Source: a virus (lineage: Duplodnaviria; Heunggongvirae; Uroviricota; Caudoviricetes). Taken from it: a DNA stretch of 64,000 bases. The notes under the pieces were generated by a model, which was not told where the DNA came from, searched no databases, and saw nothing but the letters and a program-made list of their open reading frames with translations. Where the stretch lies: positions 32,001 to 96,000 of the IMG/VR virus record IMGVR_UViG_3300049460_000121; one strand, 5' to 3'. Positions 7,631 through 37,119 of this stretch are shown one piece after another. Position 1 is the stretch's first letter, and each line of letters starts with the position of its first letter. The translations under genes were made by a program, and so were the position numbers.

Positions 7631-7681
7631 CAAAAAAAAGAAGACGCATAGAGCCAGGGCGTAATGCCCTGGCTCTATGCT
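7631..7681. terminator. bidirectional terminator hairpin
   Basis: GCATAGAGCCAGGGC-GTAAT-GCCCTGGCTCTATGC between convergent genes; A-tract on the left. Confidence 0.85.
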
Positions 7682-31352: not shown

Positions 31353-32690
31353 ATGAGCATGAACGCTGTAACCTCCCTCAGTACATTCTCGATCGAATCG
31401 GCTGAAGTCGATTTCAACGAACGTGTCGATGCCGAAGTTGGGTTCCGTGATCAGATCGAAAACCCGATCTTCACCAAAGAGTACGAAGACGCCGAACGGG
31501 TGTTCTCGACTTTCAAACGTATCAACGAGCGCGGCTTTGTTTGCCGGGCTGACATCAGTGGTGTTGCTGACCTCGCTGAGTCCTACCCTGCCATCAAGCG
31601 CATGCTGGCGCGTTACCCGCTGAACAGCTTCACCGAAGAGCCTAGCCGGGTAAACTTCGAAGTGTCGAACGAAAGCGTGATCCGTTCTGTCCTGACCGCA
31701 TTGAAGGAAGCCTTCTTCCGGATCGTCAAGTTCCTTCGTGAGTCGCTGACTCGTGTGTGGGATAACCTGATCAACGGGAAGAAGCGCACGGTCGAGGTGG
31801 ACAAGATTGGTCCACGCGTCGATGCGATGCAGCGTTACATTGTCGAAGTCGACAAGATCATGAGTGAAAGCAAGGTCGGTGAAGATTACGGCAAGTGGCA
31901 ACGCCGTAACATCAAGTCCGCTGCTGACAACCTCAGCAAGAACTGGAACGCCCTCAAGCACGTCGTGACAACTGACCAGGTCCGCAGTAAAGAGCTCGTC
32001 GGCGTGTTCGTCGATGCACTCGTCCTGCGTACAGTGCCAATGGCCATCATGATCGAAGAGTTCCTCACGGACCTCAGCGGTGCGAAGACTCCAGGCGATG
32101 TTGCTGCGGCTGTGACCAAGGCTCAGATGTTCAACATGACCACCGGTACCTTGGCCGCCTTGGCGAACCAGTGGGGTTGGAAGTCCAACATGCGCACTGA
32201 CCCACGCTTGACGCCGTTCAAGTCCATGGTCAGTTACATCGCTGGCACCTTCCGTAGCCAGAGCAACAACCGCGTCGATCTCGATCCGGCCGCTCTGACT
32301 GCCATGATGGGTGAGCTGCGCATCGAGCAATGGGGCGACCTCGTACCGGATCTGTCTCAGAGCCGTAAGCGTCTGGAAGCATCCCTGCACCAGTTGCAGT
32401 CGTACGACATGGACAAGCATCTGGACCCAGGTCTGGAAGCGCACTACACGGCCATCGTACTGCCGTTCATCAACCAGGTGAGTGTGAACGTGTCGGCGTT
32501 GAACGATCTACAGGCCACTGCCAGTATGATCATCACCACCCGTGACGTAGCCATGGTTGACGTAGCCAACGCCTGCTTGGGCGTGGTGAAAGGGATGGAT
32601 TCCTTCGTCAGCAAGAACCGTGCAGAGGTTTCTCCTGCATCGATGGTTGCGATCACTCGTTACAAAGCTGCTATCACTCAGTCGCTGTAA
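31353..32690 (+). CDS. internal head protein (phiKZ gp86-like)
   Basis: SIES, PLNSFTEEPSRVNFEVSNE site, then amphipathic helix. Confidence 0.65.
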   Translation: MSMNAVTSLSTFSIESAEVDFNERVDAEVGFRDQIENPIFTKEYEDAERVFSTFKRINERGFVCRADISGVADLAESYPAIKRMLARYPLNSFTEEPSRVNFEVSNESVIRSVLTALKEAFFRIVKFLRESLTRVWDNLINGKKRTVEVDKIGPRVDAMQRYIVEVDKIMSESKVGEDYGKWQRRNIKSAADNLSKNWNALKHVVTTDQVRSKELVGVFVDALVLRTVPMAIMIEEFLTDLSGAKTPGDVAAAVTKAQMFNMTTGTLAALANQWGWKSNMRTDPRLTPFKSMVSYIAGTFRSQSNNRVDLDPAALTAMMGELRIEQWGDLVPDLSQSRKRLEASLHQLQSYDMDKHLDPGLEAHYTAIVLPFINQVSVNVSALNDLQATASMIITTRDVAMVDVANACLGVVKGMDSFVSKNRAEVSPASMVAITRYKAAITQSL

Positions 32691-32692
32691 AC

Positions 32693-32734
32693 AGCATAGA
32701 CACCCCTGGGCGCAAACCCAGGGGTGTCTATGCT
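32693..32734. terminator. bidirectional hairpin
   Basis: AGCATAGACACCCCTGGG-CGCAAA-CCCAGGGGTGTCTATGCT. Confidence 0.85.
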
Positions 32735-32742
32735 CACCACCT

Positions 32743-33165
32743 TTAGGAGGGTAACGTATTGCCGTTCTTGTTGCCCCGTTTGCTGCCTTTCGGTTGCTGC
32801 TGCTTATTAGCAGCCATCTCCTCCAGGTTCTTACGCATCTTGGCTGCTTCTTCTTCCTCTGCCTTACGGACCTTCCTGCCATCTTCCAGGAGCTTGTCCA
32901 GGAACCAGCGGGGGAATTGCAACAGATCCATGAGTGAGGTATTCGTCAGCTCTGGGAGGCGGCACGCCACCAACTCTAAAGTCATCAACTCAAGCCGACT
33001 ACCCGTGATCGCGTTTTCAGCTGGATGCATCCCGATGATCGATAACGGATCGTCGAGCATGTGCGCATCGTGGTCGAAGATGCCGTAGTACTGATCGTAC
33101 GTCTCCATCATCGACAACTGAGCCGTCCAGTCATCCTTACCCTGCCACGACAAGAGGTTTTCCAT
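32743..33165 (-). CDS. hypothetical protein; probable -1 frameshift extension of 33252..35132
   Basis: its frame stays open upstream to 33345, across the T8 run; weak SD. Confidence 0.6.
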   Translation of the reverse strand: MENLLSWQGKDDWTAQLSMMETYDQYYGIFDHDAHMLDDPLSIIGMHPAENAITGSRLELMTLELVACRLPELTNTSLMDLLQFPRWFLDKLLEDGRKVRKAEEEEAAKMRKNLEEMAANKQQQPKGSKRGNKNGNTLPS

Positions 33166-33251
33166 AATCGGACTACCGTTGGCGTACGGGAACTTCTTGC
33201 GACCAAAGCCTAGCAGCGAGACGTGATGGTATTCACGCTTGCCTTCGAGGG

Positions 33252-35132
33252 TTACCCGCCAGCACGCTTGATTTTGTGGTGGATTAGGGTAAAAAAAACT
33301 TCGATTGGGTTGATGCTTACCAGGTGAGGGTGCTTCGACAGCGAGTCACCGGTGAGAGGAACACCGCACGAAGGGCAGGCAGACTTTGGAACCGCTACAG
33401 TGGCGAGGGTCATCGCGTTGATGAACTTCTCGATAGCTTCGGCAATCTTGGCTGTCAGCTCACCATCGTCCGCGAAGGATTCCAGCAGACGGTCCAGGTC
33501 CTGGTCCGCTTTGTACTGGAGTTCGAGGTCGTTGGCTTCGTCACCTTGCAGAACACGAGTCAGCTCGGTCACCAGACCATTTTCTGCGTTCTCGTCCACT
33601 TTAACAACCGCTTCGATCCAGTGGCTGTAGGCCATGACCATCGCGATGTTGTTGGCACGCAGCAGGTAGGTCTGACGGTCAGCCTCGTTCGCGTAGCTGG
33701 TCATCAGCACACGGGCGCGGTTGTCCATCTCGTCCATCCACGCAGTCGCCTGACGCTCGTAGTCAGCCAGCGTAGGAACACGCATCTTGACTTTGAGGGT
33801 TGGGCTGATGTCGATGTAACGGCTGACTTCAGGACGAATGCTCTCCTGATAGGCCTTGACCGTCTTGATGTCGACACGGGCAGAACGTTTGGCCATCAAC
33901 GCGAACTGGTTCTCGTCGATGCGGCTACGACGCACGAACAACATACGACGCAGGTTGACCTTACGGGTCAACGTTTCACCACAGCCGCCGTGAGTGGTCA
34001 AGCACGGACGGTCGAGGTTGTAGCCATCCGGGAAGATGGTCGCAGCCGCGGCCAGCGTCAGAGGCTCGAGGTCGGTCAAGAGGATGACCTTCTTCAACTC
34101 TTCCACATTGGTGGTGCCGATGGTGGACTTGGTCACGAAACCCAGGATGAAGTCAGCCACAGCTTTGTTCAGGTACACGGACGAAGCTGAGTAAACCAGA
34201 CCGTTGCTGTCACGCGCCATTTCGATCTTCTCATCCAGCAGCTGAGTTTCCAGGCGCAGTTGACTGAGGACCGGAGGACCTTCGAGGGTCAGGTGCATGC
34301 CGGAGTGCCAGAGCACAGCGTTGCCTTCAGTTGCCAGACCCAGTTGGCCACGAATCCGCATCACGGGGTCGTTGCTCTTCGCCGGGTTGTTGGCAGTGAT
34401 GGCGATCTTCTGGTCACCGTTGGTCGGCAGGTTGTTCCAGGTGTCTTCCTCGAAGATCTTGAAGCCGAAACCAACACGCAGCGACTTGGTGTACGAAGTC
34501 ACGTTGTTGATGGCATCGAGTTCTTCAGGGGTGAGGAACACGGTCTTCTGGTCCATGTCGATCCCGGTGAACGGGTGACGTTGGCCGGACTTGACGATGG
34601 CGTAACGGCTTTTCTGCGCTGCGAAGACGCGGCCGTAGACACCACGACGAATCACTTCCAGCTCATTCGCTTCGAAGTTCGACAGCGCGAGCGAGCCGAG
34701 TTTGGCGATGATGGTGTCTTCGAGGACTGGCAGAGTCTCTTCACAGTTCAGACGATTGATCAGTTCACCTGCCCAAGGTGCTGGAGCCACGGGAGCTGCA
34801 TCATCCGCTGGTTCCTCAGCTGCCTGTGCTTGCGCTTCAACCGACGCATCGGCGAGTGCTGGACTGGGAGCTGCGATGACGTTGGTGTTGAGATCTGCGT
34901 CTGTGCTGACAGAAGCGAAGCTCTCAGGTTCTACATCGCCAGCCGGCCATTCATGTCCGTCTTTCGGGAATTCGTTCAGCAGGCCCGAAGGTTGGAGTTC
35001 AACCTCGCCAACCTCTGTGAAGTCGCTTGGACGCGTGGGCTCTTTGGGGAGGTTTTCCCATGCGACGTGTTGTCCTTCAACGTTGCCGACGGTGACGGGC
35101 TCGTCGGCATTGCTCCCTTGATCATCGCTCAT
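33252..35132 (-). CDS. putative baseplate-hub/tail assembly chaperone (T4 gp26/gp51-like; phiKZ gp77-like)
   Basis: acidic N-terminus, CLTTHGGC and CPSCG Zn knuckles, MRVPTL, and PIEVFF near the end. Confidence 0.55.
   Translation of the reverse strand: MSDDQGSNADEPVTVGNVEGQHVAWENLPKEPTRPSDFTEVGEVELQPSGLLNEFPKDGHEWPAGDVEPESFASVSTDADLNTNVIAAPSPALADASVEAQAQAAEEPADDAAPVAPAPWAGELINRLNCEETLPVLEDTIIAKLGSLALSNFEANELEVIRRGVYGRVFAAQKSRYAIVKSGQRHPFTGIDMDQKTVFLTPEELDAINNVTSYTKSLRVGFGFKIFEEDTWNNLPTNGDQKIAITANNPAKSNDPVMRIRGQLGLATEGNAVLWHSGMHLTLEGPPVLSQLRLETQLLDEKIEMARDSNGLVYSASSVYLNKAVADFILGFVTKSTIGTTNVEELKKVILLTDLEPLTLAAAATIFPDGYNLDRPCLTTHGGCGETLTRKVNLRRMLFVRRSRIDENQFALMAKRSARVDIKTVKAYQESIRPEVSRYIDISPTLKVKMRVPTLADYERQATAWMDEMDNRARVLMTSYANEADRQTYLLRANNIAMVMAYSHWIEAVVKVDENAENGLVTELTRVLQGDEANDLELQYKADQDLDRLLESFADDGELTAKIAEAIEKFINAMTLATVAVPKSACPSCGVPLTGDSLSKHPHLVSINPIEVFFTLIHHKIKRAGG
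33291..33298 (-). other. candidate -1 ribosomal slippery site (U UUU UUU)
   Basis: mRNA GAA GUU UUU UUU ACC near the end of the 626-aa ORF. Confidence 0.65.
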
Positions 35133-35659
35133 TCACTTTTCTCTTCGATGGTTACAGGTTGGTTGTAGGCGGCTACGATGTCGAGCATCGTCTCCAGACC
35201 CTTCAATGTGTGATTCGCCAACTGGCGTGAGGCCAGCTTACGCTTGTGGCTGTCCGGAGCCCACGGTTGCAGGCGGTCGCTACGGGTGTTCACGAAGGAC
35301 ACAGCTACTGTGCCGTCGAAAGCACCTCCAGGCAAGGACGTGATCAGAGCAACCGTCTGGTTACCGATCTCGATACCCTGGATGCTCACTTCGTGGCGTT
35401 CGATGCGCACCACGGCCTGCTTGTTCACCATGTCCAGGAAATCTTGCACCGGGGTCATCATCGGGCCGATGGTGGTTTCAGGCGCAATGTGGTGCGAACC
35501 GATGAGGCGAACCAGGCTGGCCGTCAGCGGCTTCTCATCCAAACCGAAGATCGAAGCAACCTCAGTGACCAGCGCTTTGGTCAGTCCGTTCAGGACTTTC
35601 TCCGACACCGGGGTGGAGACCTGAGGGAGGATGCTGTATGTCACTTTCTTTTTATGCAT
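35129..35659 (-). CDS. hypothetical protein
   Basis: likely start MHKKK overlaps the upstream stop; ATGA-coupled downstream. Confidence 0.6.
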   Translation of the reverse strand: MHKKKVTYSILPQVSTPVSEKVLNGLTKALVTEVASIFGLDEKPLTASLVRLIGSHHIAPETTIGPMMTPVQDFLDMVNKQAVVRIERHEVSIQGIEIGNQTVALITSLPGGAFDGTVAVSFVNTRSDRLQPWAPDSHKRKLASRQLANHTLKGLETMLDIVAAYNQPVTIEEKSE

Positions 35660-36107
35660 GTGCTGGTTCTTCGCTCTTGTTAAGGATCTCGTCGTAGTCA
35701 CCCGCGGATTTAGTGAGGGTGGCCGTAATGCGATCGTTGAGGTCAATGTACTTGAGACCGTGCATCGTCAAGTCCATGTTGTGTTTTGACAGATCGGCGT
35801 TCTTGCTTGGCCGACCTTTCAGGATTTTATCGAACTCAGTATCGAGCACGGTACGTTCAGCGCTGAACTTGTCGAAGTCCTGGGCGATGATGGTACCCAA
35901 TGCGAGGATCTTCGGGACATCCTCGACGCGGCCTTGTTCCTTGAGCGTACGGAGAGACTCAGGCATCTGAACAATTGGTTCAGCAGCGGCGCGCAGAGAG
36001 AAAGTAACGGAATCTTTAAGACCGCGAGTCGACTCTTCGACCTCATCGATCTTCTTCTTGTGATTCACGTTTGACGTACGGTATGAAGGCGAGCGCTTCG
36101 AGGACAT
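35652..36107 (-). CDS. hypothetical helical protein
   Basis: GAGG SD; first gene of a divergent operon. Confidence 0.65.
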   Translation of the reverse strand: MSSKRSPSYRTSNVNHKKKIDEVEESTRGLKDSVTFSLRAAAEPIVQMPESLRTLKEQGRVEDVPKILALGTIIAQDFDKFSAERTVLDTEFDKILKGRPSKNADLSKHNMDLTMHGLKYIDLNDRITATLTKSAGDYDEILNKSEEPAHA

Positions 36108-36222
36108 GGTGTCCACCTCGTGATTATGGTCTGAGTCTTAGACGCAGTACCTCTAGTTTGATTAATACGACCTATATAAAAGATCGTTAGTATATTTATT
36201 TACATTCTGAATAGGAGTCGAC

Positions 36223-37119
36223 ATGACCGACGTCAATAACGACATTGAAACGGACGATGCGTCCCAGGAATTGCTGGCTGCATTGACCTTCGGTCAGTGT
36301 GCTCCTGAATTGGCTTCGAGCTACAGTCGCCTGGCGACCATCCTCAACGATGTTGACTTCACAGGTCATATTGATGAGCTCGAGCTGCTGTACACGCTGG
36401 TCAATGACCACAACATCGACACCACCGAAGTGGTTACATCTATCGATGCGATCTTCCGTGTGGCGGTCGAACGTTGCTTGCAGTCGGTCGGTGTAGCGCT
36501 GGACGCTGACACGCCGTTGGCGATGGTTGAAGATGCACTCAGTACATTGTTGCTGTTTGATCCGACTGATGCTCCGGCAGTATTCACGGGGATCGCCGAC
36601 GCGTCTGAGGACAGCACTGAGGCCTTACTATCAATTCTCGCTTATGTAGGTAATTACAGTGAAGAGGACTGGTTCCCGTACATCGTTGAAGTTAGCGAGA
36701 ACACGATTCGTCGCATCCGTGAAATCTCTGCCAAAGAAGATAGCCGCATACAGTCCCAAGCGGATCTTATCGACTCTGATGAGCTGAACCAGCGTGTAGC
36801 GCGTATGGCGGCTCTTCGTCCTGATAGCCTGGGCGTTGAGTTGGCTCGTGACAATGTCGGCGTAGGTGCGTCCCTGGAGAGCCTGTACGGCTGTCATGTG
36901 GAACGTTTGATCGACTTGTCCACTGAACAGGCTGTGGTTGAGTTGTTTTCCCTCGCAGCCATCTCTAATGAGAGTTACGACAAGCTGGATCAGTCCATCT
37001 CTGCCGCTCTCGATGACCTCTGTTTCGAAATGGATGATCGTCGTAAGGCAGAACAGGTGCGCCTGAACATGATGAAGTCGTACCGTCCAATCTTCGGTAT
37101 CGAAAATGAAAAGATTTGA
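36223..37119 (+). CDS. conserved acidic protein (phiKZ gp79-like)
   Basis: AGGAG SD; immediately precedes the vRNAP subunit. Confidence 0.6.
   Translation: MTDVNNDIETDDASQELLAALTFGQCAPELASSYSRLATILNDVDFTGHIDELELLYTLVNDHNIDTTEVVTSIDAIFRVAVERCLQSVGVALDADTPLAMVEDALSTLLLFDPTDAPAVFTGIADASEDSTEALLSILAYVGNYSEEDWFPYIVEVSENTIRRIREISAKEDSRIQSQADLIDSDELNQRVARMAALRPDSLGVELARDNVGVGASLESLYGCHVERLIDLSTEQAVVELFSLAAISNESYDKLDQSISAALDDLCFEMDDRRKAEQVRLNMMKSYRPIFGIENEKI

Follow-up and report, generated by a model that had tools for sequence, protein, structure and literature searches.

Conserved -1 frameshifts are a feature of the tail assembly chaperone (TAC) genes of phages, as in lambda (gpG/gpGT), P2 (E/E+E'), Mu and others. 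Two further cases are gene 10A/10B of phage T7, where the shift takes place at G_GUU_UUC, and dnaX of Escherichia coli (tau/gamma), whose A_AAA_AAG site is accompanied by an upstream Shine-Dalgarno (SD)-like element and by a downstream stem-loop. The locus analysed here belongs to the window, i.e. the whole stretch of 64,000 nucleotides formed by bases 32001-96000 of the 267,467-bp virus record IMGVR_UViG_3300049460_000121 (G+C about 54%). Chimallivirus genes are present in this window, and among them the genes of the virion RNA polymerase (RNAP) beta subunit and of the DNA polymerase flank two open reading frames (ORFs), A and B, homologous respectively to gp77 and gp76.4 of phiKZ. We consider it probable, from the comparison of sequences, that the gp77-family gene A is decoded as a short form of 626 aa and a long form of 796 aa, the latter by a -1 ribosomal slip at a T-run.

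Layout of the locus and comparison with described frameshifts

The elements of the locus are collected in Table 1. ORF A ends with ...NPIEVFFTLIHHKIKRAGG*, and 12 sense codons follow the heptamer before the TAA stop (33254-33252). The -1 frame is free of stops from 33345 to 32743 and offers no ATG, GTG or TTG ahead of 33165. A slip after F614 would join 614 residues of A to the 182 residues of the -1-frame extension, named B-ext, with the junction ...PIEVFF/YPNPPQNQACWR; the tryptic peptide HPHLVSINPIEVFFYPNPPQNQACWR would be diagnostic of this predicted trans-frame product in the window phage. The T8 run, its U UUU UUU heptamer and the 12 remaining codons are exactly those read in the initial annotation of this stretch, and we also recover the -1 frame of ORF B, the extent of the open frame, the product of about 796 aa and the gap of 86 nt that it reported.

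Table 1. Features of the gp77/gp76.4 locus in the window
Feature	Coordinates	Strand	Remarks
ORF A	33252..35132	-	626 aa; phiKZ gp77 homologue; phrog_4585
T8 run	33298-33291	-	ORF A codons GTT TTT TTT ACC
Putative slippery heptamer U_UUU_UUU	33297-33291	-	X_XXY_YYZ phase; spans F613 F614 of the FFTL motif
Dual-coding overlap	33252..33290	-	0 frame: last 12 residues of the short form; -1 frame: YPNPPQNQACWRV of the predicted long form
Apparent intergenic gap, 86 nt	33166..33251	-	-1-frame coding; carries His23 and Phe29-Gly30 of B-ext
B-ext (-1-frame extension)	32743..33291	-	182 aa and stop; joined to A after the proposed slip
ORF B (gene-caller ORF within B-ext)	32743..33165	-	140 aa; -1 frame; phrog_12109; phiKZ gp76.4 homologue
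Four Cys of the probable Zn site	C377 34004-34002; C384 33983-33981; C586 33377-33375; C589 33368-33366	-	
Upstream ORF, phiKZ gp78 position	35129..35746	-	stop overlaps the ORF A ATG by 4 nt
Perfect 16-bp hairpin	32695..32732	-	CATAGACACCCCTGGG / CCCAGGGGTGTCTATG; 6-nt loop; 10 nt past the stop of B

In the mechanism that we propose, most ribosomes would read through UUU UUU, add the 12 residues completing the C-terminal helix and stop, giving the 626-aa form; the 0-frame part of the dual-coding overlap indeed belongs to a helix predicted at residues 609-625. A fraction of the ribosomes would slip back by one base, with tRNA-Phe on UUU-UUY re-pairing with the preceding U's, and, reading thereafter in the -1 frame, would translate the gap and ORF B up to the end of the 796-aa form. 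The terminal helix would then be swapped for a proline-rich linker (YPNPP...) followed by a conserved, mostly helical domain, the whole extension making 182 aa. What is annotated as a gp76.4-type "gene" would therefore correspond mainly, or exclusively, to the C-terminal portion of a second protein made from gene A.

With lambda G/GT the locus shares a -1 slip close to the 3' terminus of a gene, which leads to a short and a long product having their N-terminal part in common (here this is read from the genes alone), a site and a frame kept while the sequences diverge, and the usual listing of two ORFs by gene callers. It differs in that A and B have no sequence or fold relation to TAC families, that gene A is about 4 times larger, and that the slip would occur on a U-run read by tRNA-Phe instead of the G_GGA_AAG of lambda. 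The initial annotation had spoken of a G/GT-type chaperone pair: from this label the short and long forms sharing their N-terminus through a 3'-proximal -1 shift can be retained, the family and the synteny cannot. No TAC family of Pfam or PHROG matches A or B at E values up to 1. A tail-assembly-chaperone reading is rejected by the synteny, A and B not being located between tube and tape-measure genes; their neighbours are a gp78-like ORF, a gp79-like protein, the virion RNAP beta subunit, the DNA polymerase and helicase-side genes. The reference to lambda G/GT is then to be taken as an analogy and not as a membership.

T7 10A/10B resembles the locus by its U-rich heptamer, close to the stop of a gene with a structural or assembly function, on which tRNA-Phe slips by -1, the minor product in T7 being the long form; it differs by its extension of about 50 residues in the capsid gene of a podovirus, whereas here a conserved domain of 150-180 residues would be added to a protein of another family. 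As to dnaX, the likeness resides in the homopolymer-like heptamer, in the X_XXY_YYZ phase and in the two products of one gene, made at a set ratio in the case of dnaX. At variance with our locus, the dnaX shift truncates the protein and needs two stimulators; the shift proposed here would extend the protein, and no stimulator was found.

Conservation of the site, of the frame and of the gap

ORF A finds matches in 215 jumbo-phage records by tblastn; megablast of the locus against phage records returned no near relative. When the entire open -1 frame was used as tblastn query, 11 of the 12 matching records gave a single alignment spanning the junction of the upstream and downstream genes, a first sign that the gap is translated. 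We read 38 loci: the window, 30 distinct IMG/VR loci, and those of named phages (phiKZ, PA1C, FLC9, Xoo-sp14, Viktualia, RAY, Eowyn, RP31, CR5, Proteus phage 10 and Totoro). In all 38, relative to A, the downstream ORF occupies the -1 frame, which is open across the FF site; the -1 ORFs spanning the site are of 162-272 codons in all loci, while the +1 frame is short. The T-run and the open -1 frame, which the initial annotation had proposed to look for in homologues, are therefore conserved throughout. F613, F614 and L616 are invariant, and T615 is found in 18 of the 21 aligned homologues. Some loci narrow the place of the shift: in L006 the -1 frame opens only 4 nt ahead of the first Phe codon, and in L004, L017 and L018 A stops 8 codons past FF. 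Since the T-run alone lies in the open window common to all loci, the proposed shift is pinned to it.

The site has the form N_UUU_UUY (NNN TTT TTY in the DNA) in 38/38 loci, with a T-run of 6 (13 loci), 7 (16) or 8 (7) bases, more rarely of 5 or 9 (one locus each), and the base preceding the run is a T in 27 of them. All loci have TTT as first Phe codon, whereas TTT makes 10-71%, mostly 20-35%, of the local Phe codons and is the minority Phe codon in most of the genomes compared. Over 22 distinct loci, which are not fully independent, the product of the local TTT frequencies is 10^-12.6; as the protein identity between these 22 loci is only 17-50%, their synonymous sites are saturated. In the window itself TTT represents 24% of the Phe codons of the long ORFs, and TTT-TTT 5 of the 64 Phe-Phe pairs. 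Only five A/T runs of at least 7 bases exist in the window, and the T8 of ORF A is thereby more than a chance occurrence. A second 8-base homopolymer, an A8 on the plus strand (7632-7639), was rejected as a recoding site: it is intergenic, preceded closely by a TAA and followed by a hairpin, and no long ORF crosses it in any frame.

The gap between A and B bears the marks of a coding sequence. In an alignment of 21 B-ext sequences His23 and Phe29 show no variation and Gly30 has a conservation of 90% or more, and all three are upstream of the ATG 33165 of the window. The invariant His is present in 32/32 sequences, and in 19 of these 32 loci no ATG, GTG or TTG exists between the last -1 stop and this His. 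The first ATG falls at widely different columns of the alignment, and 85 codons in for phiKZ. Substitutions in the gap between close relatives distribute as 80:66:180 over the codon positions of the -1 frame; between the window and an independent metagenomic relative 89% identical to it (L005), they distribute as 1:1:9, with 8 synonymous and 3 non-synonymous codon changes. From these substitution patterns and alignments the "intergenic gap" is protein-coding in the -1 frame. Besides, a profile of the extension matched 1459 protein clusters: in the best 150 of them the called N-termini are scattered over profile positions 1-58, as expected for a sequence without true start codon, and all these 150 proteins are of 102-191 aa, with no A-B fusion among them.

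Alltogether the site, the frame, the codon choice and the coding gap give strong comparative support to the frameshift put forward as a candidate in the initial annotation.

Weighing of the proposed slip

Several observations weigh against a ribosomal slip as we propose it. FF is itself an invariant protein motif and accounts for a part of the T-run; this motif explains Phe-Phe, and leaves unexplained the choice of the TTT codon. In 11/38 loci an A or a G precedes the run, so that the P-site re-pairing of a two-tRNA slip would be imperfect there; a single-tRNA slip from the second Phe codon still re-pairs fully in these 11 loci. More generally, every locus allows perfect re-pairing at the A site or by a single tRNA, and those with a U ahead of the run allow it for two tRNAs as well. 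Folding of the 90 nt following the site in 24 loci disclosed no conserved structure that could stimulate the slip (minimum free energy z from -2.4 to +1.7, no common helix), in a search which did not include pseudoknots, and no SD-like element was seen upstream of the slip site. From a bare heptamer deprived of stimulators a modest efficiency is expected, and the slip is presumably of this kind. The 796-aa trans-frame protein is, for its part, a prediction. No in-frame fused A-B protein was found among 8000 long candidates that would prove a functional fusion; this is weak negative evidence, and the absence of such a fusion, if real, rather suggests that both forms are needed. Finally, in the proteomics of the phiKZ-like phage Churi the gp077 homologue is listed with the proteins detected at an early stage of infection (PMC11849849). 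A role restricted to late morphogenesis does not sit well with this early signal, which could come from early expression or from virion carry-over.

The lack of stimulatory structure would be equally understandable if the slip were that of an RNA polymerase: by inserting one U, the phage or host enzyme would produce a share of messengers with A and B in one frame, and the same proteins would result, since a one-base insertion yields the same -1 frame. The runs of 8-9 T of some loci, including the window and L007, and the unusual multisubunit RNA polymerases that these phages possess go in this direction. On the other hand, the runs of 14 of the 38 loci count no more than 5 or 6 T, a small number by the standard of the polymerase stuttering described in bacteria, and the run is strictly codon-phased (NNU UUU UUY) in all loci, a constraint which matters for the re-pairing of tRNAs and not for a polymerase. 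We thus infer that it is probably the ribosome that slips rather than the RNA polymerase, transcriptional slippage appearing unlikely. That B would be an independent gene, starting at ATG 33165 or at a non-canonical codon upstream, with the T-run and the frame as by-products of the FFTL motif and of tight packing, seems to us still less credible. Certainly the public records annotate two genes, an ATG precedes the invariant His in 6/32 loci, and a Met occupies one shared column in the subclade of the window (window, L005, L007), so that some initiation proper to B may exist in addition to frameshifting. However, the conserved codon-phased coding extends upstream of every canonical start in the 19 loci mentioned above, and in phiKZ precedes the first ATG by 85 codons; the positions of the starts are not conserved; no SD-like sequence precedes ATG 33165; the -1 frame would be obtained by chance in every lineage with a probability of (1/3)^n; and TTT as first Phe codon is not accounted for.

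There is next to no chance that a single gene was merely split by a homopolymer sequencing error or by a recent frameshift mutation. T8 runs are error-prone on some sequencing platforms, and an assembly error in the homopolymer was named in the initial annotation as one of the things that could ruin the candidate. The relative L005 shows the same GTT TTT TTT ACC and the same frames, which excludes such an error. The same split, frame and site recur moreover in 38 independently sequenced genomes of 17-89% protein identity, where the frames are kept in spite of run lengths varying from 5 to 9; the 0-frame tail (TLxGQK...) is itself conserved and modelled as a helix, and an in-frame version was not found. 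The ribosomal -1 slip at the T-run is consequently the reading that we retain. A stronger form of it, which we hold to be slightly more probable than its contrary, is that of an obligatory frameshift extending to the whole family: from one core gene, any nucleus-forming jumbo phage would make a fixed short/long ratio of a hub assembly factor like gp26/gp51, and the gp76.4-type genes would not be real genes.

The proteins and their surroundings

phrog_4585 and phrog_12109, to which A and B respectively belong, are both without assigned function, and in the phiKZ record gp79-81 are marked structural while gp76.4, gp77 and gp78 are not. Residues 256-626 of A form a predicted folded domain resembling gp26/gp51: in the AlphaFold model built with the alignment of 21 sequences the pLDDT of this block is mostly 75-94 and the last 17 residues are helical. 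The N-terminal third of A (residues 1-137, at 34722-35132, and 208-255, at 34368-34511) is acidic, rich in Ala and Pro, and predicted disordered with pLDDT below 50. The extra length of A (about 610-626 aa) is met only in the subclade of the window (L005, L007), most relatives having about 480-560 aa. The model of B-ext has a mean pLDDT of 72 and consists mainly of helices, among them a long one at 128-164.

Foldseek with the A(256-626) model on BFVD returned its own family first and then, at ranks 19-40, more than 15 models from myophages, T4-like or not, which are named baseplate hub subunit, hub assembly protein or hub assembly chaperone (E 2e-5 to 9e-3, with a probability of 0.99-1.00 and a target TM of 0.45-0.59), both sides of these comparisons being predicted models. 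Many of these matches have E 2e-5 to 1e-3, a probability of 1.00 and a target TM of 0.50-0.59 over about 340 columns. PF12322 (T4_baseplate) is the top Pfam match of A while remaining sub-threshold (12.1 bits, E 0.16, for a cut-off of 24.5); it is matched by 2 of the 21 A homologues with E of 0.11 or worse, and is present in 16% of the members of an ESM-Atlas neighbour cluster of A. By comparison gp26 and gp51 of T4 (L042, T4 NC_000866 115802-117228) match PF12322 with 216 and 178 bits; as both match over their full length, they are paralogues. They are also divergently transcribed neighbours. The four Cys of A (Table 1) occur together in 16 of the 21 aligned homologues, and the remaining 5 lack the whole set; this all-or-none pattern is that of a structural Zn site, and suggests that the site is dispensable and bridges two distant parts of the chain.

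A is thus probably, as far as models can tell, a remote relative of the gp26/gp51 hub-assembly proteins which does not reach formal membership of the family. The guess of a T4 gp26/gp51-like protein made in the initial annotation holds at the level of the fold, of the all-or-none Cys set and of a weak PF12322 signal; it does not hold as to the Pfam cut-off, nor by hhalign, the A profile giving uninformative probabilities below 5% against the single sequences of T4 gp26 or gp51. The likeness to T4 includes, beside the fold match, CxxC-type Cys pairs in both families and two products drawn from one gene, the T4 record annotating nested 26 and 26'. However the second product of T4 comes from internal initiation and not from frameshifting, A is 2-3 times longer than gp26/gp51, and we know of no B-like domain in T4. 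Both forms of A might act in the assembly of the tail or of the baseplate hub.

Other searches brought little. With A, B or the A profile as query, sequence searches of the solved structures gave nothing below E 0.5, and Foldseek against PDB no match at E up to 0.001 for the A and B-ext models. The best Z scores of VIA-align wide, 5.8 for A and 5.2 for B-ext, correspond to generic helical pieces and are uninformative; the ESM-Atlas fold search with B-ext did not exceed a TM of 0.32; NCBIfam has no family for A or B, nor for T4 gp26 and gp51. A complex prediction between A(256-614) and B-ext gave a score of 0.38, the best of 3 controls being at 0.00, and the runs agree in at least 78% of contacts with a partner pLDDT of at least 59. 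Of 80 solved complexes 58 attain the mark applied to this score, against 2 of 110 mismatched pairs; with scores of 0.60 or less it is reached by only 7 of these 80 complexes and by both passing mismatches. This prediction weakly favours the fusion of A and B-ext and counts for little in our reading.

Upstream of A, the ORF at the gp78 position is translationally coupled to it by the overlap of their stop and start codons. Its listed TTG start is doubtful, and an ATG located 29 codons in (MHKKK...) is probably the true one; it has no match in PHROG, Pfam or NCBIfam. Downstream of B, the perfect hairpin sits between the convergent minus-strand operon and a plus-strand gene ending at 32690, and is likely a bidirectional operon terminator, as read by eye and not called by the T-tail scan. 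A scan of 32400-36400 for sigma-70 promoters and T-tail terminators found none. A similar hairpin follows a stop codon near 7650-7680.

Annotation of the locus and meaning

In phiKZ (L040, NC_004629 71442-73504) gp77 (73504..71903) reads ACT TTT TTT ACT, and gp76.4 is annotated as a protein of 80 aa only, separated from gp77 by a gap of 218 nt; the -1 frame runs from the T-run to the stop of gp76.4, with no start codon ahead of the annotated ATG. In RAY (L043) gp266 is annotated with an overlap of 136 nt on gp267, and other records leave gaps of 41-164 nt. These inconsistencies are explained by the missing annotation of the frameshift: the genome records of the compared loci contain no joined CDS nor annotated slippage. 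We found no description of it either in the literature on phiKZ, Chimalliviridae, jumbo phages or a gp77/gp76.4 frameshift, subscription-only papers being outside the search; the statement in the initial annotation that this frameshift had not been described in phiKZ-like phages agrees with these full-text searches. The mechanism is already known; it is the gene family and the phage family which are new for it.

Much work has been devoted to the Chimalliviridae (phiKZ, 201phi2-1, PhiPA3, RAY and others), in which gp77 belongs to the conserved genes without known function. If our reading is true, the locus is misannotated in hundreds of genome records, which show a small gene that does not exist, gaps of 40-220 nt or overlaps of 136 nt, and knock-outs of gp76.4 or Tn-seq insertions in it really affect the long form of gp77; an in-phase T-run beside FFTL would provide a simple rule of annotation. 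The short/long ratio would then be a testable control point in the assembly of the tail or of the baseplate, and the principle by which a -1 slip creates two C-terminal versions of an assembly factor would extend from the tail-tube chaperones to a hub-assembly family. If the frameshift is in addition obligatory and family-wide, it would define, beside the TAC class, a second and independent class of recoded morphogenesis gene in tailed phages.

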